Notes under the pieces: model-generated | Database searches by the model: none | Seen by the model: only the letters and a program-made list of their open reading frames with translations | Told to the model about the DNA's origin: nothing | NCBI RefSeq assembly: GCF_963921235.1 | Contig: NC_086097.1 | Location: 5,890,001 to 5,954,000, forward strand | DNA from: Mobula hypostoma | Taxonomy: Eukaryota | DNA: 64,000 nucleotides | Direction: 5' to 3' | Shown: positions 5,358-62,957 of the stretch, piece by piece | Position numbering within the stretch: the first letter of the stretch is position 1 | How the letters are laid out: every line of letters begins with the position of its first letter | Translations under genes and position numbers: made by a program

Positions 5358-6950
5358 TGTTACAGGTTGCACTGTAATGGCTTTGGAGTGGAATTGAGTC
5401 AGGTTTTATAAAAAACAAACATTTATTACAGTCTGCTCAGAAATAGCGAAATGGATTTAAATGACTAACTTAACCAGAAGTCCAGCAGTTAACTGCTATA
5501 CGGCAACTCTTGAACAGTTCTTAAAAGGGTAAATGCAAAGACAGTTCTTAAAGTGGTAAATTCAAACACAGTTCTTAGTTAAATTTGAAAGTCCAAGAGA
5601 TTTATACAGTCAATTAGGAGAGACTTTCCTGAAGTAAAGAATTCCTCGAAGACGTGGCGTTACTGCTGATCCCAGCCAGAACCTGCCTTGTCCACAGGAT
5701 TCACGACGACAGAAATAAAACGGTTTAAAGGAACTGACCATTTCCTCTGGAGAATAGACACTGCACAATCCTTCCTGCTTTACCAGAGGATATCTCAGAT
5801 GCAGGTCACTTTTTCTTGAACGAAGATCAATAAAGGTCGATCTTCTCCAAAACCGCCAAACGATATCAGCTTTACTCAACTCGGCGAATTCCTGTACTTT
5901 GGTAAGGTCTTCACTCTCCAATACTACTTACAATAGAAAGTAGAACTCCACTTTAAAATGAAACTGTGTCATAAGCCGAATATGCAGCAAAACGGAGTAT
6001 CTGACAAATTAAATAACGAACTAAACTTGAAAACTAACTGCATCACCCCAGAGGTATCCCTTTTATACCTGTGGTGAACATGTCATCACGTGACCTCACA
6101 CTGGAAAATTACATCACCCCACCATCACATGACCATTACCTCATGCTCATAAGATACTCAATTACTTCATGATCATAAGACAGTCACAAGATATCATGAG
6201 GTATGTAACACCACCCTCCAAAAAAATTGTTCTTTTAGGAACAAAATTGTAACAAATAACTATTTACAAAAAAAAGAAATGTATAATATTTACAATTTAA
6301 TATTCACAGTATTATCATACAGCATCTTGCAAACTAATATACAGTACAAGTGCTACAAATGTTAAAATACCACTCCAAAAAAAATTTACATTTTACGTTT
6401 AACATCTAAATAGACAATCAGCGATCACATTATCTTTCCCTATAATATGAGTTATCAAAATATTGTACTCCTGTAACATCAAACTCCAATTTAGTAATCT
6501 ACTTTTGTCTCTCATCTTACTCAAAAACACTAACGGATTATGATCGGTGTAACCTATGAGTGGTTCCTGAGTAGTACCAGCATACACTTCAAAATGTTGT
6601 AAAGCCAAAACAAGAGATAGTAACATACATCAAAGTTGCTGGTGAACGCAGCAGGCCAAGCAGCACCTATAGGAAGAGGCTGCGCCTCTTCCTATAGATG
6701 CTGCTTGGCCTGCTGCGTTCACCAGCAACTTTGATGTATGTTGCTTGAATTTCCAGCATCTGCAGAATTCCTGTTGTTTACAAGAGATAGTAGTTCCTTT
6801 TCTGTAGTTGAATAACTTCTTTGATGCAAATTAAATTTCTTAGAAAAGTAAGCTACCCGACGATCAACTTCATCACCCTCATCCCTTTGAAGTAACACTG
6901 CTCCTGCAGCTTCATCACTAGCATCTACATATAACAAAAAAGCAAAGTTC
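5358..6950 (-). mobile_element. Gmr1-like Gypsy 3' end: C-terminal RNase H, PPT and 3' LTR (5358-6209)
   Basis: YVDASDEAAGAVLLQ..VAYFSKKF..YSTTEKELL..YTDHNPL..GKDNVIADCLFRC* followed by PPT GGAGGGTGG and an LTR with TGTTAC...GTAACA termini. Confidence 0.8.
6623..6779. mobile_element. Fold-back mini-Penelope insertion with 13-bp TSD
   Basis: ACAAGAGATAGTA at 6610-6622 and 6780-6792; near-perfect palindrome made of the pLTR tail seen at ~38470-38560. Confidence 0.85.
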
Positions 6951-14345: not shown

Positions 14346-17300
14346 TTAAACTTTTCCCCCCTCACCCTTAACCCATGTCCTCTGGTTTTTTTCTCCCCTT
14401 GCCTCAGTGGAAACAGGCCTGCTTGCATTCACTCTATCTATACCCATCATAATTTTATATACCTCTATCAAATCTCCCCTCATTCTTCTACGCTCCAGGG
14501 AATAAAGTCCTAACCTATTCAACCTTTCTCTGTAACTGAGTTTCTCAAGTCCCGGCAACATCCTTGTAAACCTTCTCTGCACTCTTTCAACCTTATTTAC
14601 ATCCTTCCTGTAATTTGGTGACCAAAACTGAACACAATACTCCAGATTCAGCCTCACCAATGCCTTATACAACCTTATCATAAGATTCCGGTTCTTATAC
14701 TCAATACTTTGATTAATAAAGGCCAATGTACCAAAAGCTCTCTTTACGACCCTATCTACCTGTGACGCCACTTTTAGGGAATTTTGTATCTGTATTCCCA
14801 GATCCCTCTGTTCCACTGCACTCCTCAGTGCCTTACCATTAACATAGAAACATAGAGACATAGAAAATAGGTGCAGGAGTAGGCCATTCGGCCCTTCGAG
14901 CCTGCACCACAATTTATTATGATCATGGCTGATCATCCAACTCAGAACCCCGCCCCAGCCTTCCCGCCATACCCCCAGATCCCAGTAGCCACAAGGGCCA
15001 TATCTAACTCCCTCTTAAATATAGCCAATGAACTGGCCTCAACTGTTTCCTGTGGCAGAGAATTCCACAGATTCACCACTCTCTGTGTGAAGAAATTTTT
15101 CCTAATCTCGGTCCTTAAAGGCTTCCCCTTTATTCTCAAACTGTGACCCCTCGTTCTGGACTTCCCCAACATCGGGAACAATCTTCCTGCATCTAGCCTG
15201 TCCAATCCCTTTAGGATTTTATACGTTTCAATCAGATCCCCCCTCAATCTTCTAAATTCCAACGAGTACAAGCCCAGTTCATCCAGTCTTTCTTCATATG
15301 AAAGTCCTGCCATCCCAGGAATCAATCTGGTGAACCTTCTTTGTACTCCCTCTATGGCAAGGATGCCTTTCCTCAGATTAGGGGACCAAAACTGCACACA
15401 ATAACCAAAACTGCACACAATACCAAAACTGCACACTAACCCTGTATGTTCTACATTGGTTTGTCCTTCCAACATGCAATACCTCACACTTGTCAGTATT
15501 AAACTCCATCTGCCATTTTTCAGCCCATTTTTCCAGCTGGTCCAAGTCCCTCTGCAGGCTCTGAAAACCTTCCTCACTCTACTACACCTCCAATCTTTGT
15601 ATCATCAGCAAACTTGCTGATCCAATTTACCACATTATCATCCAGATCGTTGATATAGATGACAAATAACAACGGACCCAGCACTGATCCCTGTGACACA
15701 CCACTAGTCACAGGCCTCCACTCAGAGAAGCAATTCTCCACCACCACTCTCTGGCTTCTTCCATCGAGCCAATGTCTAATCCAATTTACCACCTCTCCAT
15801 GTATACCTAGCGACTGAATTTTCCTAACTAACCTCCCATGCGGGATCTTGTCAAAGCCCTTACTGAAATCCATATAGAGAATATCCACTGCTTTCCCTTC
15901 ATCCACTTTCCTGGTAACCTCCTCAAAAAACTCCAACAGATTGCTCAAACATGACCTACCACGCACAAAGCCATGTGGACTCTCCCTAATAAGTCCCTGT
16001 CTATCCAAATGCTTGTAGATTCTGTCTCTTAGTACTCCCTCCAATAACTTACCTACTACCGATGTTAAACTTACCGGCCTATAATTTCCCGGATTACTTT
16101 TCGATCCTTTTTTAAACAACGGAACAACATGAGCCACTCTCCAATCCTCCGGCACTTCACCCGTAGACAGCGACATTTTAAATATTTCTGCCAGGGCCCC
16201 CGCAATTTCAACACTAGTCTCCTTCAAGGTCCGAGGGAACACCCTGTCAGGTCCCGGGGATTTATCCACTTTAATTTTCCTCAAGACAGCAAGGACCTCC
16301 TCCTTTTCGAGCTGTACAGTTTCCATGATCTCACTACTTGTTTCCTTTAATTCCATAGACTTCATGCCAGTTTCCTTAGTAAATACAGATGCAAAAAACC
16401 TATTTAAGATCTCCCCCATTTCCTTTGGTTCCGCACATAGCTGACCACTCTGATCTTCAAGAGGACCAATTTCATCCCTTACAATCCTTTTGCTCTTAAT
16501 ATACCTGTAAAAGCTCTTTGGATTATCCTTCACTTTGACTGCCAAGGCAACCTCATGTCTTTTAGACCTCCCGATTTCTTTCTTAAGTATTTTCTTGCTC
16601 TTCTTATACTCCTCTAGCACCCTATTTACTCCCTGTTTCCTATACATTTCATACAACTCTCTCTTCTTCTTTATCAGAGTTGCAATATCCCTTGAGAACC
16701 AAGGTTCCTTATTCCTACTAACCTTGCCTTTAATCCTGACAGGAACATACAAATTCTGCACTCTCAAAATTTCTGCTTTGGAGGCTTCCCACCTACTGAT
16801 CACATCCTTGCCAGAGAACAACCTGTCCCAATCCACGCATTTTAGATCCTTTCTCATTTCTTCAAATTTGGCCTTCTTCCACTTAAGAACCTCAACCCTA
16901 GGACCAGATCTATCCTTGTCCATGATCAAATTGAAACTAATGGTGTTATGATCACTGGAACCAAAGTGCTCCCCTACACAGACTTCTGTCACTTGTCCTA
17001 ACTCGTTTCCTAACAGGGGATCCAATATTGCATCCCCTCTAGTTGGTCCCTCTATATATTGATTTAGAAAACTTTCCTGAACACATTTTACAAACTCTAA
17101 ACCATCTAGACCACTAACAGTATGGGAGACCTAAACAATATATGGAAAATTAAAATCCCCTACCACCACAACTTTATGTTTCCTGCAGTTGCCTGCTATC
17201 TCTCTGCAGATTTGAACTTCCAATTCTCTTTGACTATTGGGTGGTCTGTAATGCAATCCCACTAATGTGGCCATGCCTTTCCTGTTTCTCAGCTCCACCC

Positions 17301-18655: not shown

Positions 18656-18914
18656 AAAACTTACTAGAACCTACCCTGGCCTCTGCCTGTTCTCGCCGAA
18701 GCCTGCTTGAGCCAAAGCCGTCCCACTCTGACTCAGTCCACTCCGACGATGGCCGCTACAACGATGGCCGCTGTATATGGTGGTCTGCTTTTTAAACCTT
18801 GGCGCGCTACGTCACGCGCCTGCGCAGTGCAGACCCTTCTCCCCAAGCAGTTTTTTAAAAAGATGACTTTTTCGACCCGAATTCTTCCGCTCACTTCTTC
18901 AGCTACTTGCTTCG

Positions 18915-35842: not shown

Positions 35843-36004
35843 TGCAAACAGGAGGAAATCCGCAGATGCTGGAAATTCAAGCAACACACATAAAAATTGC
35901 TGGTGAACGCAGCAAGCCAGGCAGCATCTCTAGGAAGAGGTACATTCGATGTTTCCGGCGAAGGGTCTCGACCCGAAACGTTGACTGTACCTCTTCCTAG
36001 AGAT
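35843..36004. mobile_element. Fold-back mini-Penelope insertion with 11-bp TSD and a partial hammerhead
   Basis: AACCCCAATGT at 35832-35842 and 36005-36015; inverted arms around GGCGAAGGGTCTCGACCCGAAACGTTGAC. Confidence 0.82.
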
Positions 36005-37204
36005 AACCCCAATGTATTATTTCATTTGCAGTATTAAAAAATCATTATTTTACACTTTCTAACATTCCTACTTTTGATCTGTTGAGACATCATACAGTTG
36101 CCTTTTGGGACAATTTTTGGTCTTGTTGCCTGTCTTTGCACCTCCTTTATTTTCTCCTCAACGCAGAACTCATTTGATTTATTCAGAGATACACCGCTGA
36201 ACAGACCCTCCCGGCCCAGTGAGCCGCACCAGCCAGCACCCCTCCGATTAACCCAGGCCAAATCACAGGACCATTCCCACTGACCAATCAGCCAGTCCGT
36301 CTTTGCGCTGTGGGAAGAAACCTATGTGACCACAGAGAGAATGTACGAGCTCCTTACAGATGGCGCCAGAATAGAATTCCGACTCCCTGAGCTGTAATAG
36401 CATCATTTTAACCTCTACGCTACCATGGTGCCTCATGATATTGATGACTGTCTGGTTCCTTAACGTTGTCATAGCGGGGTTGGGGCAGGAGAAGGTTGTG
36501 GGAGTAACCTACCTATTAACTGGCGTGCACCTCAAATAACCTCTGATAGCAAATTCAGTCTTCACGGGTGACTTAGCTACTAAAGCCCAGTACAACTGTT
36601 TCTACTGATAAGAAGCGAGTTACTAGAGACTTAAAACCAATTGCTTTAGGCTGATGGGCCCAGCAGCCATGGCTGGCAGCTCTGATCTTAAACTTCCTCT
36701 GCCTTGCAGCATACCCACTCAAGGAAGTAAAATTCAAGGAAAACTCCAGAGCAGGATTCTGAGTCTGTAAGGCAGCCTGAAGTTGAGTTCAACACTGACT
36801 GGCAACTCCTGTGATGCCACTAGGGTCAAACTATATTGGTCTCTGTTGTTCCTTTGGATTCACTGGCTGCGTGGAGAGGGGAAGCCTGCTGCCTGGGCAA
36901 CAGCTTGCTCTCCACATCATACTGACCTGCCTTGCGTATCACAAAGACAGCTGGGATGCAACATTCATGGCTGACCTCAGCCAACGGAGGGTCAGTCAGA
37001 CATAACTGTCTCCAATGTTTATGAAAGATCACTAAAGCGTTGACTCTGCTTCATTCATTGCAGCTGCTGCCTGACCTACTGAGATTTTTGATCCTTTCTC
37101 CATCGCATTAGCAGCATTGCTGATATTTCTCAGTTCAGATTGGCAACATCATGCAGGCTCGAAGGGCCGAATGGCCTACTTCACCTATTTTCTATGTTTC
37201 TATC

Positions 37205-37677
37205 TCCTCCACTCCCTTGTCCATTCGTCCCCCCCATCCCTCCCCACTGATCTCCCTCCTGGCACTTATCCTTGTAAGCGGAACAAGTGCTACACATGCC
37301 CTTACACTTCCTCCCTTACCACCATTCAGGGCCCCAAACAGTCCTTCCAGGTGAGGCATCACTTCACCTGTGAGTCGACTGGGGTGATATACTGCGTCCG
37401 GTGCTCCCGATGTGGCCTTTTATATATTGGTGAGACCCGACGCAGACTGGGAGACCGCTTTGCTGAACATCTACGCTCTGTCCGCCAGAGAAAGCAGGAT
37501 CTCCCAGTGGCCACACATTTTAATTCCACATCCCATTCCCATTCTGACATGTCTATCCACGGCCTCCTCTACTGTAAAGATGAAGCCACACTCAGGTTGG
37601 AGGAACAACACCTTATATTCCGTATGGGTAGCCTCCAACCTGATGGCATGAACATTGACTTCTCTAACTTCCGCTAG
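37205..37677 (+). CDS. Penelope GIY-YIG endonuclease domain, open frame, N-terminally truncated
   Basis: Part of ORF 37117-37677 with VIY..YIG motifs, the intervening CxxC and the conserved R/H/E/N residues. Confidence 0.8.
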
Positions 37678-37970
37678 GCCCCACCTCCCCCTCGTACCCC
37701 ATCTGTTATTCTTTTTTATGCACACATTCTTTCTCTCACTCTCCTTTTTCTCCCTCTGTCCCTCTGAATATACCTCTTGCCCATCCTCTGGGTCACCCCC
37801 CCCCCGTCTTTCTTCCCTGACCTTCTGTCCCATGATCCTCTCGTATCCCCTTCTGCCTATCACCTGTCCAGCTCTCGGCTCTATCCCTCCCCCTCCTGTC
37901 TTCTCCTATCATTTTGCATCTCCCCCTCCCCCTCCAGCTTTCAAATCCCTTACTCACTCTTCCTTCAGTT

Positions 37971-38006
37971 AGTCCTGACGAAGGGTCTCGGCCTGAAACG
38001 TCGACT
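37971..38006 (+). ncRNA. Minimal type I hammerhead ribozyme (Penelope pLTR), copy 1
   Basis: AGUC-CUGACGA-A-GGGU(CUCG)GCCU-GAAA-CG-UC^GACU: stem I AGUC/GACU, conserved core, palindromic ACGU stem III. Confidence 0.8.
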
Positions 38007-38430
38007 GCGCCTCTTCCTATAGATGCTGCCTGGCCTGCTGCGTTCACCAGCAACTTTGATGTATGTTACCTTATATTCCGTCTGGGTAGCCTCCAACTTG
38101 ATGGCATGAACATTGACTTCTCTAACTTCTGCTAATGCCCCACCTCCCCCTCGTACCCAATCCATTATTTATGTACACACATTCTTTCTCTCTCTCTCCT
38201 TTTTCTCCCTCTCTCCCTCTGACTATACCCCTTGCCCAACCTCTGGGTTTTCCCCCCCTCCCCCTTTTCCTTCTCCCTGAGCCTCCTGTCCCATGATCCT
38301 CTCATATCCCTTTTGCCTATCACCTGTCCAGCTCTTGGCTCCATCCCTCCCCCTCCTGTCTTCTCCTATCATTTTGGATCTCCCCCTCCCTCTCCCACTT
38401 TCAAATCTCTTACTAACTCTTCCTTCAGTT

Positions 38431-38466
38431 AGTCCTGACGAAGGGTCTCGGCCTGAAACGTCGACT
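38431..38466 (+). ncRNA. Minimal type I hammerhead ribozyme, copy 2
   Basis: Identical to copy 1 and 460 nt downstream. Confidence 0.8.
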
Positions 38467-38574
38467 GTACCTCTTCCTACAGATGCTGCCTGGCCTGCTG
38501 CGTTCACCAGCAACTTTGATGTGTGTTGCTTGAATTTCCAGCATCTGCAGAACTCCTCGTGTTTGCGGAGGTAA

Positions 38575-38819: not shown

Positions 38820-41800
38820 AACCCCAAGATGGCCAGCCGCCACCAGTCCATACAACCACCACAGTACGGTGGAGCAGAGCCTCTGGGGGATCACCAGCTG
38901 CAGGAGATGTCTGTTGCCACCGGGAAACCGCCACTGCCCGTACAGCCACCCGTCGCACACCTCCAGCATGCCCCGCTGGGATTATAGGGCTTTGGTCTCT
39001 GGGTCCAGGACGGAGACCTCTCCCACCCACATTCAGCTGCCTCCTCAACCAGGCCAGCATGGGATCAGTCACCTGCTCGCTGCGCAGTGGCCGGTGGTCA
39101 GTGGTGGGGAGGTCTACCTGAGGTACCGCCTCTGCTGCTTGCCCTCCGCTCCTCTCCTCCAGGCGGCGACAGTAGTGACACTGGGTGGCCTCACAGGATC
39201 GGCGAGGGAGGGTGTCAGCGTTGTCGTGGTGCCTTCCGGCACCGTGCTGTTTCTCAAAATCAGAGCCCCTTGGGACCATGGGAGATCAATGGCCAGGTCA
39301 GTGACGTGTGGTCCGTGTGAAGCAGGAACCATTGGCTGAAGAGGCAGGCGTGGAAGTGTTGGAGGGCTTGGACCACGGCCAAGAGCTCCTGGATGGTGAT
39401 ACAATCACAACCCAGGGTGTGGTTGAAGTGCGCCACAGTGCCTTTTCCTTGGTCCCCCTCCTGTGACAGGCCACGCCGACCCCCACCCCCTCCCCCCATT
39501 GCTGGTGTCTGTGTCAACAATGAATCGGGGTACGTCAACACTGGGGCCTGGGTGACCACATCTCAGAGCTCATCGAAGGCTGCAGTGCAGGTGTGAGTTC
39601 AGGTGAGGGGCCTCCCCTTCTTGCTGAGCTGGTGCAGGGAATTGGTGATGGTGGCAACAGTAAACTGGCTGCAGAACGATGCCAGCCCCAGGAAACCACC
39701 ACCTTTTCAGGGGCAGTCCTCGCTACTTCTTCCAAAGTTCGTCTGCCGGTGAAGCAGAGAGAATTTTGTGGGGTTGAGGGTAGGTTTGCCTGGCAGACGC
39801 TGGCGAAAACCTCTTCCAAGATCCGCAGGGCATCATCAAAAAAGAAAGCATACACTAGGAGATCACCCAAATAGATGACAGAGTATGTGATCCTGCGCCC
39901 TCTCCATCAGTCTCTCAAATGTGGCCCGGGCCTTACACAAGCCAAACGGCATCACCCGGAAGTGCCACAGCCCTGGTCCAATGGTGAAGGCAGCCTTGGG
40001 CCGGGCCTCCAGGCCCAGTTTGACCTGCCAGTAGCCACTGCGGAGAGCAAGAGAGCTGAACCAGGTTGAGCCTGTGATACAGTCCAGGGCATCAACACAA
40101 ACACAAGGAAATATGCCGATGCTGGAAATTCAAGCAACACACGTCAAAGTTGCTGGTGAACGCAGCAGGTCAGGCAGCCTGGCCTGCTGCATACACCAGC
40201 AACTTTGATGTGTGTTGGCAGAGCATCATCAGTTAGGGACAGCGGGTAGGAATCCTCCTGGGTCAGTCCATTAAGATGGCAGTAGTCTACGCAGTACCGC
40301 CACGATCCGTCTTTCTTCCTGACCAGCTCCACTGGAGCTGCCCATGGGCTATCGGAGGACTTGATGATGCTTACTGCTGCCATCTCTTTGATCCATTGCT
40401 CTGCTTCCTGACATTTGGTGAGGGCCAAGCAATGGGGCTGCAGGCGGCTGGACTTGACGTTGCCGGTGATAATGTGGTGCTGGACAAGTCCCGTGTGTCT
40501 GCAGTCCTTGTCCTTGACTGCAAAGATGTTGAGATGCTCGTCCAAGAGATCCTTTAGCCATCGCCGCTGGTCCTGATCCAAGCCCCTCACTCCTCCGCTG
40601 CCATAGCCCTCGCACTGCCAGGATAGTCTCACTGGAGGGTGTCGCAGTAGTGCTGCTGATATTGCTGTGTTGCACCAATGCAGTTGCTGATGACAGGGGC
40701 AGGGTGAGCTGCACTGTTGGTGGCCGGTACTGGTTGTTGCTGCGGCCAGCTGGAGCTGCCCCGCTGGAGGGCTTTGGCCAAGGTTGAGAGTTGCCCCTGA
40801 CAAATCTGCACAGGCTCCGCAGCAGGACAGCAGGTCAGCAGGCCAATGATGCAGGGCTCCCGGATGTCGGCAAACCACACCTCATGCTCCGCTGTGCTTC
40901 TGCCCACTGTGTTGTCCAGCCTCCTCTACCCTCTCATCGCCACACGATCGCCATAGTCAGCTGGACCGCCATCATTGTCCACCAGGTGTGATGGTTGGTC
41001 CATATTGGGAAGGACACCTGGAGGTTAGATGGTAGTGGTTGACCCCATGTCCACCAACGCACGGCATATGATGCACTCCACCACGCAGTCCACACATAAG
41101 CCTGGCTCTTCATCCAAATGGCCCACCCGGAGGGCGACAATGCCGGGATTCTGCTGGAGGCACTGAGTGGTGCTTCCCTCATGGCACTGCCCGTTCGGCA
41201 TTTCCCAATGGCTGCACTGGGCTGTGGCGTGGTGCAGGTGTGGGGCAGTTCCGGGCCACGTGGCCAGCCTCGCCACACCGGTAGCAGAGATCGCTTCATG
41301 GCATGTGGTGGTATTGGTCAGACCTGCCTCACCAGCTCCTCCTTGTCAGTTTCCTCCTCTGCCTTGATGACACAAGCCTGGGATCCTAGCATGTGGGGGC
41401 GACACTGGAATGTCATGGGGGACTAAAATAGCTTCTGCTCTCTCCGACCACGCCAGTGCCTTGCCAGCAATGATGGTGATGTAAGGTGAACACGCTGGCA
41501 AAGGCACTCTGGCATCAATGCCTTTACAAAGGCGTAGAGGACAAGCTCTTCCTGGGCTGTGGGAGGGAACTGGGTGGGGGGGGGGTGACCATGCCAAGCA
41601 CAGTGGTGAAGATCTACCGCCACGTTTTCTCCCACACCCCACCATCTGCTGCCCAGCTTTTCCCTCACGGCTGCGGAGTCGTGAGTTCCCCGGTGCAATG
41701 CACAGAGATGGAGGGTGATGCGATCCACTGTGTACCTGGTTTGAGCAACTTGGGTATGCTCACTCCGTTGGGGTCCCCTGGGAAGGCATGATGCCCGGTA

Positions 41801-43148: not shown

Positions 43149-46025
43149 CATGTTGAGCTCCCCTTATCTGAAAATCACAAAATCTGAAAACCTCCAAAAC
43201 CCAGTTTTTTTTTTGAGTGCTGACCTGATGCCACAAGGGGAAATTCCACAAGACTGGCGAGGTTGTCAGGTGATGCGTAGGTCTTTGTGTACCACAGACA
43301 GTTCTGAGTCGTGACCTCACAGACCCTGAATAGGGTTCTGTTGGCACCACTTTGTTTTCAGCGGTGATCATAGCCAAACTTTTCTGCATTATTTTATGTG
43401 CTTTGTGCTTATTCTCAGCTTTGTGCTGTGAAGCTATTGTTGGAAATGTCGAAAAGTCCTGCAGTTATTCCTATAGATAATAGTGAAAAGAAAAATAGGA
43501 AGCATTTATCTAAAGCACATTTATGTATCCATGACACATCCTTTCATTATATTAATGGCATGTAATGAGCTTTACTGTGAAGTAGATGTGTGTGATGAAC
43601 AAATGTAAGACAAAGACTGCTTACCAGTAACACATAAATTCAGAGTCGGAAATGATGACAATGCCAATGAGCCACTGACTCTCCAACAGGGCGGCTGAGG
43701 TAGTGATGGTTCAATATATACATTATTGTTTCATGCACAGGGTTATTAAAAATATTATTAAAATTATCTTCAAGCTGTATATAGAAACATAGAAACATAG
43801 AAAATAGGTGCAGGAGTAGGCCATTCACTACCCTGCACTAGCCTTCCCTCCATACCCAGAGAATTCCACAGATTCACCACTCTCTGTGTGAAGAAGTTTT
43901 TCCTAATATCGGTCCTAAAAGGCTTCCCCTTTATCCTCAAACTGTGGCCCCTCGTTCTGGACTTCCCCAACATCGGGAACAATCTTCCTGCATCTAGCCT
44001 GTCCAATCCCTTTAGTATTTTATACGTTTCAATCAGATCCCCCCTCAATCTTCTAAATTCCAACGAGTACAAGCCCAGTTCATCCAGTCTTTCTTCATAT
44101 GAAAGTCCTGCCATCCCAGGAATCAATCTGGTGAACCTTCTTTGTATTCCCTCTACGGCAAAGATGTCTTTCCTCAGATTAGGGGACCAAAACTGCACAC
44201 AATACTCCAGGTGTGGTCTCACCAAGGCCTTGTACAACTGCAGTAGTACCTCCCTGCTCCTGTACTCGAATCCTCTCGCTATAAATGCCAGCATACCATT
44301 CGCCTTTTTCACCGCCTGCTGTACCTGCATGCCCACTTTCAATGACTGGTGTATAATGACACCCAGGTCTCGTTGCACCTCCCCTTTTCCTAATTGGCCA
44401 CCATTCAGATAATAATCTGTTTTCCTATTTTTGCCACCAAAGTGGATAACTTCACATTTATCCACATTAAATTGCATCTGCCATGAATTTGCCCACTCAC
44501 CCAACCTATCCAAGTCACTCTGCATCCTCTTAGCATCCTCCTCACAGCTAACACTGCCACCCAGCTTCGTGTCATCCACAAACTTGGAGATGCTGCATTT
44601 AATTCCCTCATCCAAGTCGTTAATATATATTGTAAACAACTGGGGTCCCAGCACTGAGCCTTGCGGTACCCCACTAGTCACTGCCTGCCATTCTGAAAAG
44701 GTCCCGTTTATTCCCACTCTTTGCTTCCTGTCTGCCAACCAATGCTCTATCCACATCAATACCTTACCCCCAATACCGTGTGCTTTAAATTTGCACACTA
44801 ATCTCCTGTGTGGGACCTTGTCAAAAGCCTTTTGAAAATCCAAATATACCACATCCACTGGTTCTTCCCTATCCACTCTACTAGTTACATCCTCAAAAAA
44901 TTCTATGAGATTCGTCAGACATGATTTTCCTTTCACAAATCCATGCTGACTTTGTCCGATGATTTCACCGCTTTCCAAATGTGCTGTTATCACATCCTTG
45001 ATAACTGACTCCAGCAGTTTACCCACCACCGACGTTAGGCTAACCTGTCTATAATTCCCCGGTTTCTCTCTCCCTCCTTTTTTAAAAAGTGGAGTTACAT
45101 TAGCCACCCTCCAATCCTCAGGAACTAGTCCAGAATCTAATGAGTTTTGAAAAATTATCACTAATGCATCCACTATTTCTTGGGCTACTTCTTTAAGCAC
45201 TCTAGGATGCAGACCATCTGGCCCTGGGGATTTATCTGCCTTCAATCCCTTCAATTTACCTAACACCACTTCCCTACTAACAAGTATTTCACTCAGTTCC
45301 TCCATCTCACTGGACCCTCTGTCCCCTACTATTTCTGGAAGATTATTTATGTCCTCCTTAGTGAAGACAGAACCAAAGTAATTATTCAATTGGTCTGCCA
45401 TGTCCTTGCTCCCCATAATCAATTCACCTGTTTCTGTCTGTAGGGGACCTACATTTGTCTTTACCAGTCTTTTCCTTTTTACATATCTATAAAAGCTTTT
45501 ACAGTCAGTTTTTATGTTCCCTGCCAGTTTTCTCTCATAATCTTTTTTCCCCTTCCTAATTAAGCCCTTTGTCCTCCTCTGCTGAACTCTGAATTTCTCC
45601 CAGTCCTCAGGTGAGCCACTTTTTCTGGCTAATTTGTATGCTTCTTCTTTGGAATTGATACTATCCCTAATTTCTCTTGTCAGCCACGGGTGCACTACCT
45701 TCCTTGATTTATTCTTTTGCCAAACTGGGATGAACAATTGTTGTAGTTCATCCATGCAATCCTTAAATGCTTGCCATTGCATATCCACCGTCAATCCTTT
45801 AAGTGTCATTTGCCAGTCTATCTTAGCTAATTCATGTCTCATACCTTCAAAGTTACCCCTTTTTAAGTTCAGAACCTATGTAATGTAAATGGACTTTGTG
45901 TTTAGATTTGGGTTCCATCCCAAGGTATCTCATTATATATATGCAAATATTCCAAAATCTGCAAATAATCTGAAATCTGAAACACTTCCTGCCCCAGGCA
46001 TTTTGGATAAGGGGTGCTCAGTCGA
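43149..46025 (+). mobile_element. Tigger4/Zombi-like pogo DNA transposon derivative, split by a CR1
   Basis: TA flanks (43147-43148, 46026-46027); TIRs CATGTTGAGCTCCCCTTATCTGAAA / TTTTGGATAAGGGGTGCTCAGTCGA; transposase start MSKSPAVIPIDNSEKKNRKHL at 43446. Confidence 0.8.
43781..45876 (-). mobile_element. Young 5'-truncated CR1 with an uninterrupted 690-aa RT frame (43770-45842)
   Basis: KSPGPDGLHPRVLKE..QHGF..LDFQKAFD..SGVPQGSVLGP..FVDDTK; 3' internal deletions relative to 51659-53934. Confidence 0.95.
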
Positions 46026-46575: not shown

Positions 46576-47366
46576 GTTGTAGAATTTCATATTTGGATTG
46601 GGAGCACATTACAATTAGAAAGAACATAAACGTTCTTGCTAGGAAATCAGATACCCAAAATAACTGTCTTTTATACTGCATTGAAAGATGCCTTTCTGCA
46701 GATATCGGTATTTATTCATTGAAGATTAAAGTTTGGTTCTTATTTATATTAACTGGCTGCTACTCCAATAACTTCTGAAAGATATCACCCACCAAACAAT
46801 CCCTGAAATGGTCACGAATGCTGCCAAATAATTCAAAGTAAATTTATTATCAAAGTACATATATGTCACCATAGACAACCCTGAGATTCGTTTTTTGCTG
46901 GTATACTCAATAATCATTATCATCTTCATTATATGCCATGTTGTATGACTGATGCAATCATGGATTTTGACCATGATTGTTCTTGAAAAATTTTTCTGCA
47001 GAATTGGCTTGTCATTGCCTCATGCGTGGGCAGCGTCTTTGCAAGACGGGTGACTCCAGCCATTATCAATACTCTTCAGAGATTGTCTGCCTGGCATCTG
47101 TGGTCGCACAACCAGGACTTGTGATGTGCACCAGCTGCATACATGGTCACCCACCACTTGCTCTCATGGTTTCACGTGACCCTGATTGGGGTGGGGTGAG
47201 GGCTAAGCACGTGCTACACCTTGCTCAAAAGTGACCCAGAGGCTGGCGGGGGTAAGAAGTGCTTTACACTTCCTTTAGTACAGACACATCTCAAATCTGC
47301 CATCTGAATTCTCAATAAATCCATAGGTAATTCCATTCTTCTTCTCCCTTTCCCCACAGTATCAAC

Positions 47367-48760
47367 CTGTGGCTCTGGCATCGATTGCTATGAAGTGCTT
47401 CGAGCGATTGGTTATGGCACACATCAACCACAGCCTACCGGTCAACCTCGACACTTTGCAACTCACCTACCGGAGCAACAGGTCAATGGCAGATGCCATC
47501 TCTCTGGCCCTACATTCCTCCTTAGAACACCTGGAGAATAAAGACGCATACATAAGGCTCTTTTTCATTGACTACAGCTCTGCCTTTAATACCATCGTTC
47601 CAAATAAACTGATTCCTAAGCTCCGGAACCTGGTCCCTAGCACTCAGATCTGCAACTGGATCTTCAACTTCCTCACAGACAGGACCCAGGCTGTAAAAAT
47701 AGAGGACAAGCTCTCCTCTACAATCACTCTGAGCACCGGTGCCCCACAAGGCTGTGTACTCAGCCCCCTGCTGTACTCACTGTACACCCATGATTGTGTA
47801 GCCAAGTTTCCATCAAACTCAATATATAAGTCTGCTGATGACACAACAATTGTAGGCCGTATCTCGGGTAATGATGAGTTTGAGTACAGAGAGGAAATTA
47901 AGAACCTGGTGGCATGGTGCGAAGACAATAACCTATCCCTCAACGTCAGCAAGATGAAGGAATTAGTTGTTGACCTCAGAAGGAGTAGCAGACCGCACGA
48001 CCCAATTTACATCAGTGGTGCGTAAGTGGAACAGGTCAAAAGCTTCAAGTTCCTCGGGGTCAATATCACAAATGACCTGACTTGGTTGAACCAAGCAGAG
48101 TCCACTGCCAAGAAGGCCCACCAGCGCCTTTACTTCCTGAGAAAACTAAAGAAATTTGGCCTGTCCTCTAAAACCCTCACGAATTTTTATAGATGCACCG
48201 TAGAAAGCATTCTTCTAGGGTGCATCACAACCTGGTATGGAAGTTGTCCTGTCCAAGACCGAAAGAAGCTGCAGAAGATCGTGAACACGGCGCAGCACAT
48301 CACACAAACCAATTTCCATCCGTGGACTCACTTTACACCGCACGCTGTCGGAGCAGTGCTGCCAGGATAATCAAGGACACGACCCACCCAGCCAACAGAC
48401 TTTTCGTCCCTCTTCCCTCCGGGAGAAGGCTCAGGAGCTTGAAGACTTGTACAGCCAGATTTGGGAACAGCTTCTTTCCAACTGTGATAAGACTGCTGAA
48501 CAGATCCTGACCCAGATCTGGGCCGTACCCTCCAAATATCCAGACCTGCCTCTCGGCTTTTTGCACTACCTCACTTTCCATTTTCCTATTTTCTATTTAT
48601 GATTTATAATTTAAATTTTTATATTTACTAATTTTTACTATTTTTAATATTTAATATTTAATATTTGTAATCCAGGGAGCGGGAAGCGCAGAATCAAATA
48701 TCGCTGTGATGATCGTACGTTCTAGTATCAATTGTTTGGCGACAATAAAGTATAAAGTAA
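47367..48760 (+). mobile_element. Young 5'-truncated Rex1/Babar LINE (RT and C-terminus; one stop and one frameshift)
   Basis: [77 protein letters not shown]. Confidence 0.93.
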
Positions 48761-48776
48761 AGACAAGTAAAGTAGG

Positions 48777-48940
48777 CAAACATGAGGAATTCCGCAGATG
48801 CTGGTAATTCAAGCAACACACATCAAAGTTGCTGGTGAACGCCTGACGAAGGGTCTTGGCCTGAAAAGTCGACTGTACCTCTTCCTAGAGATGCTGCCTG
48901 GCCTGCTGCATTCACCAGCAACTTTGATGTGAGTTGCCTA
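48777..48940. mobile_element. Fold-back mini-Penelope insertion with 12-bp TSD and a hammerhead core
   Basis: AAGTAAAGTAGG at 48765-48776 and 48941-48952; CCTGACGAAGGGTCTTGGCCTGAAAAGTCGAC at ~48842-48873. Confidence 0.85.
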
Positions 48941-50675: not shown

Positions 50676-51658
50676 TTCTGGTTACGTTAACTCCAGCTGC
50701 AAGTAACGAAAATTGCTCCAAGACTACCCAGAACAGCATTGCATCTGACAGTTGAAAACAAGCTTGCAAATAGGCTTGGTATATAAAAACTAGGATGAAA
50801 CCAAATATGATAAGCATTTTATCGAACATGAGATGTTGCATAATGAACTGTTATTTTCTATGTCACTATGTCATTAGTGGTGGAGCTTTGCAAGAGCAGT
50901 GTCCCCTGATATGTCGATAACTTCAGGATGTCAGATTTTATTATAACATAGTCTCCTGGTGCAACATTAATCATGAGAACAGGAAATGAAAATTACAAGT
51001 GCGATAATGATAAGAAAAGTCAAGGAAGCCCTCCGTTGGTCATGGTCGACCATGGATGTTGCATCCTACCTGTCTATGTAATACACAAGTCAGGGCAGTA
51101 CAAAATGGAGAACAAGCTGTAGCCCATGTAGCAAGCTCCCCCTCTCCACGGAGCTAATGAATCCAAAGGAACGAAAGAGATTGATAGAGTTTGGCACCAG
51201 CAGCGTCTCAGGAGATGCTGGTAGGTGTTGAGCTCAATGTGGGACTGCTCTGGGGACTCCAGCTCCAGAGTTATCTTCAGGGTTTGCTCCCAAAGCTTTC
51301 CCCATAGGTGCAAGGCAGCAGAGGTTTGAGATCAATTTTGCTTCTCCTAGGTGAGCTGCCAACCACAGCTGACCTGCCAAACATGCATGAAGCGGCTGGT
51401 TTTAAGGTGCCAGAAACTGGCCTTTGCCCCTTCTCCTGTCAGTAGAGCGGGCCTAGAAGCGGAGACATAAGTGAAAGCTAGGAGCTGGAATTGATTGTCA
51501 GAGGCTATTTGAGACGCGTGTCATTAAAACATACAAAAGGTAGTGGGAGCTTATCCCCACTGACCCCCGCACCTACGACAACCTTAAGGAACCGGAAGAA
51601 GATTATAGGGAGTGTACAGTAGTTCATCATTAGCATAACGCTATTACAGCACAGATGA

Positions 51659-53934
51659 TATAGAAACATAGAAACATAGAAAATAGGTGCAGGAGTAGGC
51701 CATTCGGCCCTTCGAGCCTGCACCGCCATTCAGTACGATCATGGCTGATCAACCAACTCAGAACCCTGTACCAGCCTTCCCTCCATACCCCCGATCCCTT
51801 TAGCCACAAGGGCCATATCTAACTCCCTCTTAAATATAGCCAATGAGCTGGCCTCAACTGTTTCCCGTGGCAGAGAATTCCACAGATTCACCACTCTCTG
51901 TGTGAAGAAGTTTTTCCTAATCTCGGTCCTAAAAGGCTTCCCCTTTATCCTCAAACTGTGACCCCTCGTTCTGGACTTCCCCAACATCGAGAACAATCTT
52001 CCTGCATCTAGCCTGTCCAATCCCTTTAGGATTTTATATGTTTCAATAAGATCCCCCCTCAATCTTCTAAATTCCAACGAGTATAAGCCTACTTCATCCA
52101 GTCTTTCATCATATGAAAGTCCTGCCATCCCAGAAATCAATCTGGTGAACCTTCTTTGTACTCCCTCTATGGCAAAGATGTCTTTCCTCAGTTTAGGGGA
52201 CCAAAACTGCACACAATACTCCAGGTGTGGTCTCACCAAGGCCTTGTACAACTGCAGTAGTACCTCCCTGCTCCTGTACTCGAATCCTCTCGCTATGAAT
52301 GCCAGCATACCATTTGCCTTTTTCACTGCCTGCTGTACCTGCATGCCCACTTTCAATGACTGGTGTATAATGACACCCAGGTCTCGCGGCACCTCCCCTT
52401 TTCCTAATCGGCCACCATTCAGATAATAATCTGTTTTCCTGTTTTTGCCACCAAAGTGGATAACCTCACATTTATTCACATTAAATTGTATCTGCCATGA
52501 ATTTGCCCACTCACCCAACCTATCCAAGTCACCCTGCATCCTCTTAGCATCCTCCTCACAGCTAATACTGCCGCCCAGCTTCTTGTCATCCGCAAACTTG
52601 GAGATGCTGCATTTAATTCCCTCATCTAAGTCATTAATATATATTGTAAACAACTGGGATCTCAGCACTGAGCCTTGCGGTACCCCACTAGTCACTGCCT
52701 GCCATTCTGAAAAGGTCCCGTTTATTCCCACTCTTTGCTTCCTGTCTGCCAACCAATGCTCTATCCACACCAATACCTTACCCCCAATACCGTGTGCTTT
52801 AAGTTTGCACACTAATCTCCTATGTGGGACCTTGTCAAAAGCCTTTTTAAAATCCAAATATACCACATCCACTGGTTCTTCCCTATCCACTCTACTGGTT
52901 ACATCCTCAAAAAACTCTATGAAATTCGTCAGACATGATTTTCCTTTCACAAATCCATGCTGACTTTGCCCGATGATTTCACCGCTTTCCAAATGTGCTG
53001 TTATCACACCTTTGATAACTGACTCTAGCATTTTCCCCACCACCGATGTCAGGCTAACTGGTCTATAATTCCCCAGTTTCTCTCTCCCTCCTTTTTTAAA
53101 AAGCGGGGTTACATTAGCCACCCTCCAATCCTCAGGAACTAGTCCAGAATCTAAAGAGTTTTGAAAAATTATCACTAATGCATCCACTATTTCTTGGGCT
53201 ACTTCCTTAAGCACTCTGGGATGTAGACCATCTGGCCCTGGGGATTTATCTGCCTTTAATCCCTTCAATTTACCTAACACCACTTCCCTACTAACATGTA
53301 TTTCGCTCAGTTCCTCCATCTCACTGGACCCTCTGTCCCCTACTATTTCCGGAAGATTATTTATGTCCTCCTTAGTGAAGACAGAACCAAAGTAATTATT
53401 CAATTGGTCTGCCATGTCCTTGTTCCCCATAATCAATTCACCTGTTTCTGTGACAAATGACCTACATTTGTCTTTACCAGTCTTTTCCTTTTTACATATC
53501 TATAAAAGCTTTTACAGTCTGTTTTTATGTTCCCCGCCAGTTTTCTCTCATAATCTTTTTTCTCCTTCCTAATTAAGCCCTTTGTCCTCCTCTGCTGAAC
53601 TCTGAATTTCTCCCAGTCCTCAGGTGAGCCACTTTTTCTGGCTAATTTGTATGCTTCTTCTTTGGAATTGATACTATCCCTAATATTCCCTTGTCAGCAC
53701 TACCTTCCTTGATTTATTTTTGCCAAACTGGGATGAACAATTGTTGTAGTTCATCCATGCGATCTTTAAATGCTTGCCATTGCATATCCACCGTCAACCC
53801 TTTAAGTGTCATTTGCCACTCTATCTTAGCTAATTCACGTCTCACACCTTCAAAGTTACCCTTCTTTCAGTTCAGAACCTTTGTTTCTGAATTAACTATG
53901 TCACTCTCCATCCTAATAAGAATTCCACTATATT
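51659..53934 (-). mobile_element. Young 5'-truncated CR1 (565-aa RT ORF 51739-53436) inserted in a SINE head (51608-51658, 53935-54140)
   Basis: Complete RT motifs including FADD; ATGA at 51655-51658 and 53935-53938; the SINE halves rejoin as ..ctattacagcacagatgacctgggcttaactccc. Confidence 0.93.
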
Positions 53935-59764: not shown

Positions 59765-61000
59765 CAAGATTCAACATTCAAGATCGTTTAATGTCATTTC
59801 CAGCACACAAGTGTAAAGGAGAATGAAATAATTGTTACTCCGGATCCAATGCAGCACAAAAAAACACAATAAATTGAAGAATACAATATAAAAATCCACA
59901 ATACTCGTAAATAATAAATACATATGATAGTTTATATATATAGATTGATTGTATGTCTATAAAGTGAAGCTAGGCACAGGAGTGTCTGTATTTAAGGTGA
60001 CTAAAAGGGAAATGATGGAGTAGTGGTGTAGAGGGGTGGATTAGTCGCTGGAGGTGTTGATCAGCCTTACTGCTTGGGGAAAGTAACTGTTTTTGAGTCT
60101 GATGGTCCTGGTGTGGATGCTACCTAGCCTCCTCCCTGATGGGAGTGGGGCAAACAGTCCATGAACAGAGTGTGTGGGATCATAGAAACATAGAAACATA
60201 GAAAACAAGTACAGGAGTAGGCCATTCGGCCCTTCGAGCCTGCACCGCCATTCAGTATGATCATGGCTGATCATCCAACTCAGAACCCTGTACCTGCCTT
60301 CTCTCCATACCCCCTGATCCCTTTAGCCACAAGGGCCATATCTAACTCCCTCTTAAGTATAGCCAATGAACTGGCCTCAACTGTTTCCTGTGGCAGAGAA
60401 TTCCACAGATTCACCACTCTCTGTGTGAAGAAGTTTTTCCTAATCTCAGTCCTAAGAGGCTTCCCCTTTATCCTCAAACTGTGACCCCTCGTTCTGGACT
60501 TCCCCAACATCGGGAACAAACTTCCTGCATCTAGCCTGTCCAATTCCTTTAGGATTTTATACGTTTCGATAAGATCCTTCTCAAAATTCCAGCGAGTATA
60601 AACCTAGTCAATCTAGTCTTTCATCCTGTGAAAGTCCTGCCATCCCAGGAATCAATCTGGTGAACCTTCTTTGTACTCCCTCTCTGGCAAGAATGTCTTT
60701 CCTCAGATTAGGGGACCAAAACTGCACACAATACTCCAGGTGTGGTCTCACCAAGGCCTTGTACAACTGCAGATCCTTCATAATGTTGCTGGCCCTTGTA
60801 CCGGCACCTTTCTGTATAATATGTGCTTGGTGGCTTCTAGGCTGAACTGAAGACCAGAGAGTTTCAGGTACATCGAAGTGTAGTGTTTATCAAGTTGAGG
60901 ATCTTCCCACAGCAGATGATACTTGTCTTCTGATTTGTAGAAGGCTGAGGAGCTAGTTTCTGTAGAACAGCCTTCAAACACTTCTTCGGTGTCAGATGAT
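59765..61000 (-). mobile_element. Rex1 3' portion with a nested young CR1 (60182-60771, GATC TSD)
   Basis: Host reads ASNIMK|DPTHSVHGLFAPLPSGRRL across the insertion; GATC at 60178-60181 and 60772-60775. Confidence 0.85.
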
Positions 61001-61619
61001 AGTGTCTGAGGTGTCCAAGGAGGGGTAGCACCTGTGGTGAAGGGGCTTGTTGTGTCCATCCTGGGGCAGCTCACTCACCTTTGGTCCTCACCGGACACTC
61101 AACTTTCACCTGTGTCTCCAAGTAGCTGTTTGCATGTGAGTGACCACACCCCAGTATATTGCTTTGACAAGGAGGTTAAACAATTGACGGTAGCTGATGG
61201 TCCTTATACCACAGTCAGTGAGAACTTACTTATTGCATAATATTTTGGCTTATGTACAGAGTGTGATTGATGTGTGGGGTCACCGAGGTCTTGAGAATCA
61301 TTGTTTCATTGGATTGTGTATATATATAGTCAGATGACAACAAACTTGAACTTCAACTTGACAAGGACCTGTCTGTCCTAGCATGTGAAGTCAGCTCGGG
61401 CAGACTGGGCAGATGAGATCTACAATGAGATCCAACGGCCAGGACGGCAGCTCTGTGACACTTCATGGAAAATGAATGGCATGGCGAGGCACAGAAGACA
61501 TCATGGTCATCTACTGTAACCAAGGAAGACCCCAGTTGTAATGACTACTTGCACCACTGGACCTGGACCTCTGAGGTTCAGGTCCAGTAGAACTCTCCAG
61601 TTCAACATCTTTTCCAAAG

Positions 61620-62245
61620 CAAAACACACAAAGTGCTGGAGAAACTCAGCAGATCAGGCAGCATCTATGAAACTGAATAGATAGTTGACATCTCGGGCCA
61701 AGACTCCTCTCCAGGACTGAGAAGGAAGGGAGAAGATCTCAGAATAAAAGATGGGGGGAGGGGAAGGAGGCTAGCGGGAAGGGGATAGGTGAAGCCAGGC
61801 TCGTGGGAAAGGTCAAGGGATGCAGAAGAGGTAATCTGTTAGCAGAGTAAAGTGGACTAAACGAAAAATGGAAGAAAGTGCGGACCCAGGGGGAGGTAAT
61901 GGGCAGGACAGAAGAGGTAAGAGGTCATAGTGGGGAACGGGGGGGGGGATTTTGTTTACACAAAGGAGAAATCAATATTCATACCATTAGGTTGGAGGGT
62001 ACCCAGACAGAATATAAGGAGTTGCTTCTCCTCCGTGAGGGTGGCCTCATCTTGGCACAAAAGGAGACCATGGATCAACACGTCAGAACAGAAATGGGAA
62101 TTAGAATTAAAATGTTTGGTTACTGGGAAGTCCCACTTGTGGTGGATGAAGCAGAGCTGCTCGACAAAGCAGTCCCCAGTTTGGGATGGGTCTCACCAAT
62201 ATAGAGGAGGCCACATCCATAGCACAGACCCCAGCAGATTTGCAG
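61620..62245 (-). mobile_element. Old Penelope 3' end (GIY-YIG remnant and pLTR with a decayed hammerhead)
   Basis: Minus strand YIGET..FPVTKHFNSNSH..FCLGTLQPNGMNIDF; CAGTCCTGGAGAGGAGTCTTGGCCCGAGATGTCAAC. Confidence 0.75.
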
Positions 62246-62509: not shown

Positions 62510-62640
62510 GGTCCTGAACAAGGTTCTTGACCTGAAACATTGTTTATTAATTTCCATTGATGCTGCCTGACCTGCTAAGTTCCTCCAGCATTCTGTGTGC
62601 GTTGCTCTGGATTTCCAGCATCTGCAGAATCTCTTGTGTT
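62510..62640 (+). repeat. Penelope pLTR tail with a decayed hammerhead
   Basis: GTCCTGAACAAGGTTCTTGACCTGAAACATTG..GATGCTGCCTGACCTGCT..TTTCCAGCATCTGCAGAATCTCTTGTGTTT. Confidence 0.7.
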
Positions 62641-62957
62641 TAGGCTATTTAATAATTCCATGTAGGAAACTGCACTTGCACATGGTTAAATATTGCATTA
62701 TTTGTGAATAAGAAGCTGTCACATAATCAGTTCGGGTTCTTCTATCAGGTTCAAACACATGAGTTTGACAATATTTTTTCTATTCATACATTTATTGTAC
62801 ACACAAGTTACAAGGCAGCTGATTAACACACAAGCTTTGAAAATTATGACTTCTCAAGATAATAAATAGTTTATTCGTTGCAATAGGACCATCTTTTTTA
62901 ATGACAAAACATGCCCTTGATGAGAGCAGAAAAGACAATCTAACTTCTGGTTTATAG

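Follow-up and report, generated by a model that had tools for sequence, protein, structure and literature searches.

The 64-kb window (the whole stretch of DNA analysed here) carries two identical motifs that we read as minimal type I hammerhead ribozymes (min-HHRs) from the terminal repeats of Penelope-like elements (PLEs), brought to a spacing of 460 nt by the head-to-tail abutment of truncated copies from two subfamilies; we put the probability of this explanation at roughly 0.85. A 5'-truncated copy of one subfamily (37211-38067) would adjoin, head to tail, a shorter tail copy of the other (38068-38566), and the motifs would lie 460 nt apart simply because two truncated tail-end PLE copies sit one behind the other, which is the partial-tandem arrangement that PLE integration is known to produce. 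The finding extends the known link between minimal hammerheads and PLEs to one more family, a very abundant one from a cartilaginous fish. The parts of the two motifs are as follows.

37971-38006 (+): hammerhead motif 1, predicted cut after 38002
38431-38466 (+): hammerhead motif 2, identical to motif 1, predicted cut after 38462
37970-37974 with 38003-38007 (+): helix I of motif 1, four Watson-Crick pairs and one U.G pair
37975-37981 (+): CUGACGA box of motif 1
37982 (+), corresponding to 38442 in motif 2: extra A, unpaired, between A9 and 10.1
37983-37986 with 37991-37994 (+): helix II of motif 1, GGGU/GCCU, with CUCG loop at 37987-37990
37995-37998 (+): GAAA box of motif 1
37998-38001 (+): ACGU palindrome of motif 1, in place of helix III, no loop
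38002 (+): C17 of motif 1, the UC being 38001-38002

An earlier, sequence-only reading of this DNA had claimed two identical motifs, and the 36-mer AGTCCTGACGAAGGGTCTCGGCCTGAAACGTCGACT is indeed found in two exact copies, at 37971-38006 and 38431-38466 of the plus strand, with no others in the 64-kb window and 0 matches in 100 dinucleotide-preserving shuffles. The looser core pattern CTGANGA-N(8-30)-GAAACGTC, searched over the whole window, returns the same two sites only and is likewise absent from all 100 shuffles. In both motifs the boxes stand in type I order (CUGANGA, GAAA, UH); the open helix I comprises 4 to 5 pairs and has no loop 1, as in the minimal form. The last base of the GUC site is 38002 in one motif and 38462 in the other, exactly the cut positions that had been proposed, and the interval so delimited (38003-38462) measures 460 nt. 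Since every box is present, the further claim of a minimal type I hammerhead with a palindromic ACGU standing in for helix III is also sound, and to judge from their sequence both motifs are minimal type I hammerheads of the PLE kind. The A at 37982/38442 is regarded as unpaired because the register of helix II is set by GGGU/ACCC and GGGU/GCCC copies, in which that A cannot pair; the 10.1-11.1 pair that closes helix II is a G.U wobble in both window motifs. Note also that a relaxed box expression (CTGAAGA...GAAA...TC) has one unrelated match at 18862-18902 (-), without family context, which is taken as chance.

Metazoan PLE terminal repeats (pLTRs) carry minimal type I hammerheads whose hallmarks are one nucleotide between 9 and 10.1, a palindromic 15.2-16.2 and a short helix I; they occur as thousands of mostly solitary copies, with dual motifs 100-700 bp apart on opposite strands, and their activity is weak, two or three motifs being needed (Cervera and De la Pena, 2014; PMC4209133). 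The motifs described here resemble them in having type I boxes, one unpaired nucleotide between A9 and 10.1 and a position on the sense strand of the PLE tail, in the short open helix I (4 bp plus a U.G pair), in lacking loop 3 and having a palindromic ACGU that allows a helix III only between two motifs, and in numbering thousands of copies, mostly solitary or head-to-head, that derive from truncated elements. They differ from the flatworm and fly families of the same study, in which helix II measures 6-8 bp, by a helix II of 4 bp, and the highly conserved G-C at 10.1-11.1 is replaced by G.U in the dominant variant. Copies outnumber those in coelacanth and Xenopus (roughly 4,000 to 9,000 copies; PMC4209133), and among the copies recovered none was full-length with a repeat on both sides of the ORF. 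The newt satellite 2 and avocado sunblotch viroid double hammerheads (Forster et al., 1988, as cited in the available text of PMC4209133 and PMC6765202) share the principle that helix III is weak and two motifs pair, but have a short looped helix III where the present motifs have none.

Similar in its habits, going by the available text of PMC11167929, is the Poseidon-type PLE 'PAc' of Anolis, which also has a hammerhead in its terminal repeat and insertions that end inside that repeat. Copies of PAc tend to lie beside or inside earlier ones near the ORF/repeat junction, in AT-rich DNA, as is the case here at ...GTTA|CCTTATATTCC; insertion of PLEs into or next to earlier copies at such places is described in the accessible parts of both PMC6765202 and PMC11167929. 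The PAc hammerhead overlaps the start of the ORF, whereas that of the window follows the stop codon at a distance of 294 nt, with its cut site 104 nt short of the end of insertions. Protein-assisted cleavage has been shown for PAc (PMC11167929, available text).

The element to which the first motif belongs is identified by its coding remnant. Its parts, together with the two tandem units, are:

37211-37677 (+): 3' part of a 5'-truncated PLE ORF, GIY-YIG at about 37381-37605, stop codon 37675-37677
37610-38067 (+): tandem unit 1, subfamily A, delimited by the TRF period, 96-99% identical to many genomic copies
38068-38566 (+): tandem unit 2, subfamily B, a 5'-truncated tail copy ending in ...GTGTTTGC at 38566

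The open reading frame 37075-37677 (+) gives a Pfam GIY-YIG match at residues 103-177 (E 8.5e-5). Homology of the window element to other genomic copies starts at 37211, and the element is considered 5'-truncated at this point because the other copies go on upstream with shared sequence. The hammerhead lies in the non-coding tail on the same strand (+) as the GIY-YIG ORF remnant, 294 nt behind its stop codon, the cut site being 104 nt before the usual 3' end of insertions. A longer genomic copy (L053) has a 291-aa ORF with a GIY-YIG match and 47 longer homologues, most of them with RVT_1 plus GIY-YIG; the best named homologue, at 63% identity, is from Stegostoma tigrinum (zebra shark). This ORF is also 49% identical (E 2e-87) to residues 530-800 of P0005, a protein of 806 aa with RVT_1 at 291-479 followed by GIY-YIG at 708-751. 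Endonuclease-positive PLEs have a reverse transcriptase with GIY-YIG behind it (PMC8557442 and PMC4209133, available text), and this order is reached here by homology rather than within one contiguous copy of the family, the window holding the GIY-YIG part only. The Penelope context that had been claimed for the motifs is thus confirmed by a GIY-YIG remnant upstream on the same strand and by longer relatives with both domains.

Tandem Repeats Finder (TRF) reports a single array at 37610-38527, with a period of 460, 2.0 copies and 90% matches. Unit 1 consists of the last 22 codons of the ORF, the stop codon, a pyrimidine-rich non-coding tail, the hammerhead and a 3' arm that ends early, at 38067, which is 39 nt before the usual 3' end; unit 2 ends at 38566, the usual 3' end of other genomic insertions. 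Aligned with each other, the units are identical in 412 of 465 columns, with 41 mismatches and 12 gap columns, and the gaps fall in pyrimidine tracts, in agreement with the indel differences that had been pointed out in the tracts flanking the motifs. The longest run common to both units measures 52 nt (37956-38007) and includes the motif; the next longest measures 42 nt.

The identity of the two units, only 89.9%, can be set against that of copies elsewhere in the genome. Many genomic copies match unit 1 at 95-99% identity and unit 2 at about 90%, and for others, including L016, L022, L024, L049, L054, L061 and L066, the relation is reversed. This split between unit 1-like and unit 2-like copies indicates that the two units belong to two subfamilies, so that unit 2 did not arise by duplication of unit 1 in place. 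Around the composite 37211-38566 no target duplication was found, the flanks having no shared word of at least 6 nt, nor one of 9-12 nt with one mismatch; without such a duplication one event looks like two, and the composite arose either by one integration with a template switch or by two adjacent integrations, both routes agreeing with what is published on PLEs. The junction itself (38067/38068, ...GTTA|CCTTATATTCC) is placed 67 nt upstream of the stop codon in the equivalent of unit 2. It recurs at two other loci (L040 and L042, 1578|1579), at exactly the breakpoint of the window and with different subfamily combinations, and 7 of the 28 direct pairs of motifs described below leave the usual 3' end at the same base (...GTTAC). 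Such a shared breakpoint suggests a junction that has formed repeatedly rather than one dimer that was copied. The usual continuation GCTTGAATTTCC is similar to the acceptor ACCTTATATTCC at the junction, and microhomology or a preferred target site may lie behind the recurrence.

Several further tail copies are scattered over the window:

6623-6779 (unstranded): fold-back tail copy without hammerhead, with a 13-bp target duplication at 6610-6622 / 6780-6792
35844-36004 (unstranded): fold-back (head-to-head) tail copy of the same family, junction inside the hammerhead, CUGA box absent, helix II GGGU/ACCC
40098-40217: fold-back tail copy of the same family
48776-48939 (unstranded): fold-back tail copy, boxes intact at 48843-48870, GAAAAGTC in place of GAAACGTC
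61617-61728 (-): decayed copy of a second PLE family
62511-62641 (+): tail copy of the second, older PLE family, with decayed hammerhead CTGAACA...GAAACATT

Two of these had been cited in the sequence-only reading as copies that keep the pairing of stem II, and both do exist, but both are dead as ribozymes. The GGGU/ACCC pairing near 35961 is present, but beside a fold-back junction at 35959 and without a CUGA box; in the copy near 62521 the AGGU/ACCU pairing needs a shifted register, and its motif (62511-62541, CTGAACA...GAAACATT) has lost both G8 and the GUC site. That reading did not list the hammerhead at 48843-48870, a third copy with intact boxes in which the palindrome has been lost (GAAAAGTC). 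In the copy at 6623-6779 the plus arm begins 2 nt past the predicted cut site (window 6680, equivalent to 38005). Taken with many other loci, the window displays the habits of endonuclease-positive PLEs, namely 5'-truncated, partial-tandem and adjacent inverted copies and target duplication.

The abundance of the family was assessed with exact patterns in the 3.48-Gb assembly that contains the window. The 28-nt core occurs in 42,891 exact copies and its reversed control in 0; a flank-anchored pattern that leaves 40 nt free has 42,945 matches, and a 25-mer from the 3' arm has 68,737. Counted by eye among the matches listed, 49 of 100 flank-anchored rows have the exact 28-mer and 12 have C instead of U at 11.1, giving G-C at 10.1-11.1; most of the variants in the listed rows are C-to-T or G-to-A changes at CpG sites of the motif. 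With the anchor placed in the 3' arm, 22 of 30 sampled arms cover the motif, with the exact 28-mer in 12 and the exact 36-mer in 11. Both window motifs carry the commonest form of the family, and so their identity to each other is nothing peculiar to this locus. With about 43,000 exact motifs in 3.48 Gb, the genome offers ample natural material for studying the function of the motif. The word GATGCTGCCTGACCTGCT (window 62559-62576), which is typical of the tails of other PLE families, occurs 38,808 times, and several PLE families jointly give well over 100,000 tail fragments in this genome.

Counted by eye, the first 100 exact motifs listed, which span 6.1 Mb, include 9 head-to-head pairs within 1 kb and a single direct pair, that of the window. 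Direct pairs at a spacing of 445-475 nt number 28 genome-wide, as against about 43,000 exact motifs, and three of these 28 rows belong to one 233-nt array. Head-to-head fold-back pairs are the usual form, and direct pairs at this spacing are rare. The 12 direct pairs that were inspected differ in internal structure, which argues that no 460-nt unit has been amplified. As to the 460-nt unit that the sequence-only reading had put forward, the spacing does not mark out a recurrent unit and its rare counterparts are heterogeneous; the 460-nt spacing is probably not meaningful. The 233-nt array just mentioned (L039 1024-2047; G000:C12, about 195329094-195330117) has 4.4 copies with 98% matches; each unit combines the tail of the family, from the hammerhead to the 3' end, with some 96 nt of different sequence. 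The array, which is preceded by a fold-back copy, could be a young local duplication or a retrozyme-like array.

Fourteen of the 30 anchor-sampled arms span 37940-38037 and served to measure conservation relative to unit 1. Differences number 15 in 504 sites within the motif, 28 in 434 over the 31 nt upstream of it and 38 in 434 over the 31 nt downstream; with CpG transitions excluded, the rates are 2.0% for the motif versus 6.5% upstream and 4.6% downstream, in 14 arms that share ancestry and are a non-independent sample. When GATGCTGCCTGACCTGCT is used as a second anchor, CTGA is found 38-46 nt upstream in 17,178 of 38,808 matches. Among the matches listed, 100 rows contain at least two further families, whose linkers from the cut site to the GATGCTGCC block are unrelated, and which keep the same boxes, the extra A, a GGGU...GCCY helix II and GAAACGUC. 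The loop of helix II is CUCG in one of these families and UCCG in the other, many copies being decayed, and many copies of other PLE families among the matches listed also have G-C at 10.1-11.1. Retention of the motif across subfamilies and at least two further families with unrelated linkers indicates constraint at the level of lineages. Variants within the stems are one-sided and keep pairing (C/U at 11.1, G/A at 11.4 and C/U opposite G at the outer pair of helix I), and no two-sided compensatory change was seen by eye in the variant lists of this family and of the others. Of the conservation and covariation that had been claimed across copies, the former is borne out across subfamilies and families, whereas the variation seen by eye in the stems is one-sided, and the two dead copies near 35961 and 62521 that had been cited for covariation make poor evidence.

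The covariance-model scan proposed for the hammerhead gave nothing: Rfam at gathering threshold has 0 matches in the whole window, and at E <= 10 there is no hammerhead match in a 2.5-kb segment or even in one of 81 nt. No curated model backs the hammerhead call; absence of a match is expected for a motif without helix III. Nearest-neighbour folding, whose energies ignore the tertiary core, predicts two alternative hairpins at -12.3 kcal/mol as against -7.7 kcal/mol for the hammerhead fold, and these hairpins would bury the CUGA box and the cut site. In the minimum-energy fold of 37962-38012, CCUUC.GUUA/UGAC.GAAGG hides helix I and the CUGA box, and UCGGC/GUCGA hides the cut site. For two motifs, the nested double-hammerhead pairing is predicted at -12.8 kcal/mol and the dimer minimum at -33.7 kcal/mol. 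A 6-nt palindrome, GUCGAC, overlaps ACGU and could, in such models, compete for dimer pairing. The predicted energies agree with the low intrinsic activity and the protein-assisted cleavage described in PMC4209133 and, in its available text, PMC11167929.

Where truncated copies begin was examined in the 30 sampled tail arms (L043-L072). Sixteen of them begin between the equivalents of 37943 and 38011, around the motif, and at least 8 of these 16 adjoin an inverted arm. No arm of the 30 starts at the cut site itself (38003), the nearest starts being 37998 and 38011, nor does any start in the 26 nt between 38012 and the anchor; L015, which is outside this sample, starts at the equivalent of 38004. 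The idea that cleavage defines the 5' ends of truncated copies was rejected for want of a peak at the cut site.

Three other explanations of the motif or of the pair have to be weighed against this evidence. A chance resemblance to hammerhead boxes within a repeat, to which the silence of Rfam and the unrelated match of the relaxed expression at 18862-18902 (-) might point, is scarcely credible in view of the 0 matches across 100 shuffles, the conservation of the motif across families and the fact that all published hallmarks of the PLE hammerhead occur together, at the correct place and on the correct strand of a PLE. Nor do we give much credence to the 460-nt pair as a retrozyme-like unit, which would be transcribed, cut twice and ligated as a monomer into a circle, and maybe copied back into DNA. 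Two intact motifs in direct orientation, 460 nt apart, are what such a unit calls for, and an array of 4.4 units of 233 nt made from the same tail exists elsewhere in the genome. Moreover, animal non-LTR retrozymes are reported to derive from PLE terminal repeats and to have units averaging 363 bp in the single cartilaginous fish sampled (bioRxiv 10.64898/2026.07.22.740005, 2026, available text). The window pair resembles those retrozymes in its relation to PLE terminal repeats and in its head-to-tail units of a few hundred nucleotides with type I hammerheads thought to act as dimers (PMC7229834 and the same preprint, in their accessible parts), but it comprises only two units (2.0 copies, with 28 direct pairs genome-wide), has a coding remnant inside the unit, joins two subfamilies and, the 12 inspected pairs being different, has not been amplified. 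The retrozyme hammerhead is furthermore canonical, with contacts between the loops of helices I and II (PMC7229834, available text), whereas the one found here is minimal, with an open helix I, no loop 1 and hence no such contacts. A circle junction, for its part, would look like ordinary genomic copies and would hence be invisible in contigs.

A less improbable alternative, though still one that we consider unlikely, is that the 36-nt block has been kept mainly for a non-catalytic role, as a binding or pausing signal for PLE protein or as a promoter, the boxes being residual or secondary. The hammerhead-shaped block would then persist chiefly as a structured signal for the PLE's own protein, and not for cutting, and could serve as a point of stalling, fold-back or template switching during reverse transcription. 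The reasons for entertaining this are the G.U wobble at 10.1-11.1 in the most prolific variant, the 5' ends and fold-back junctions that cluster around the motif, with the 5' ends not at the cut site itself, and the fit of the recurrent head-to-tail junction; predicted folding, too, favours hairpins that hide the core. Hammerhead mutants of the Anolis PLE are reported to insert normally in vitro (PMC11167929, available text), and functions besides cleavage were left open in PMC4209133. Yet plain 5' truncation also piles up short copies near the 3' end, and all boxes, the extra nucleotide and the palindrome are kept jointly across families with fully diverged linkers, a pattern that a functional hammerhead would require. 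PLE hammerheads of other species, in addition, cut as dimers or with protein (PMC4209133; PMC11167929 and PMC6765202, citing Lunse et al., in their available text). In a weaker variant, head-to-tail pairs like that of the window would be the raw material for retrozyme arrays.

We therefore return to the reading of two terminal-repeat hammerheads placed 460 nt apart by the abutment of truncated copies. By analogy with published PLE work, two motifs in transcripts of an active element would pair through the ACGU palindrome and form a shared helix III, and the RNA would be cut after GUC, weakly by itself and probably with protein help. In the Anolis PLE cleavage needed protein and was dispensable for insertion in vitro, and no RNA-seq read ended at the cut site, according to the available text of PMC11167929. 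Both truncated copies in the window are taken to be inert relics, although read-through transcription could in principle release a 460-nt RNA from the pair. That cleaved ends are ligated into circles, accounting for the tandem layout, was proposed in PMC4209133; the available text of PMC6765202 repeats this proposal and adds that a tandem layout may aid dimer formation by adjacent motifs. The dimer action of minimal hammerheads from PLE terminal repeats and the idea of self-processing or circular RNA are thus already in print, and the latter gains no support at this locus. Three departures from published families deserve mention: G.U predominates at 10.1-11.1, the number of copies is very large, and 5' ends and fold-back junctions cluster round the motif.

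The surroundings of the composite contain other retroelements. Immediately to the left of the PLE fragment, the DNA at 36523-37210 is homologous to 51029-51722 (-), the stretch after an RVT_1 ORF at 51739-53499 (-), and resembles the 3' end of a LINE-like element. Part of it, 52 nt long (37152-37203), is found again at 14852-14906, 43789-43826, 51668-51722 and 60190-60244, as well as at several other loci. The three RVT_1 ORFs of the window, at 43770-45875 (-; E 5e-33), 51739-53499 (-; E 6e-30) and 47327-48025 (+; E 3e-23), belong to these other retroelements.
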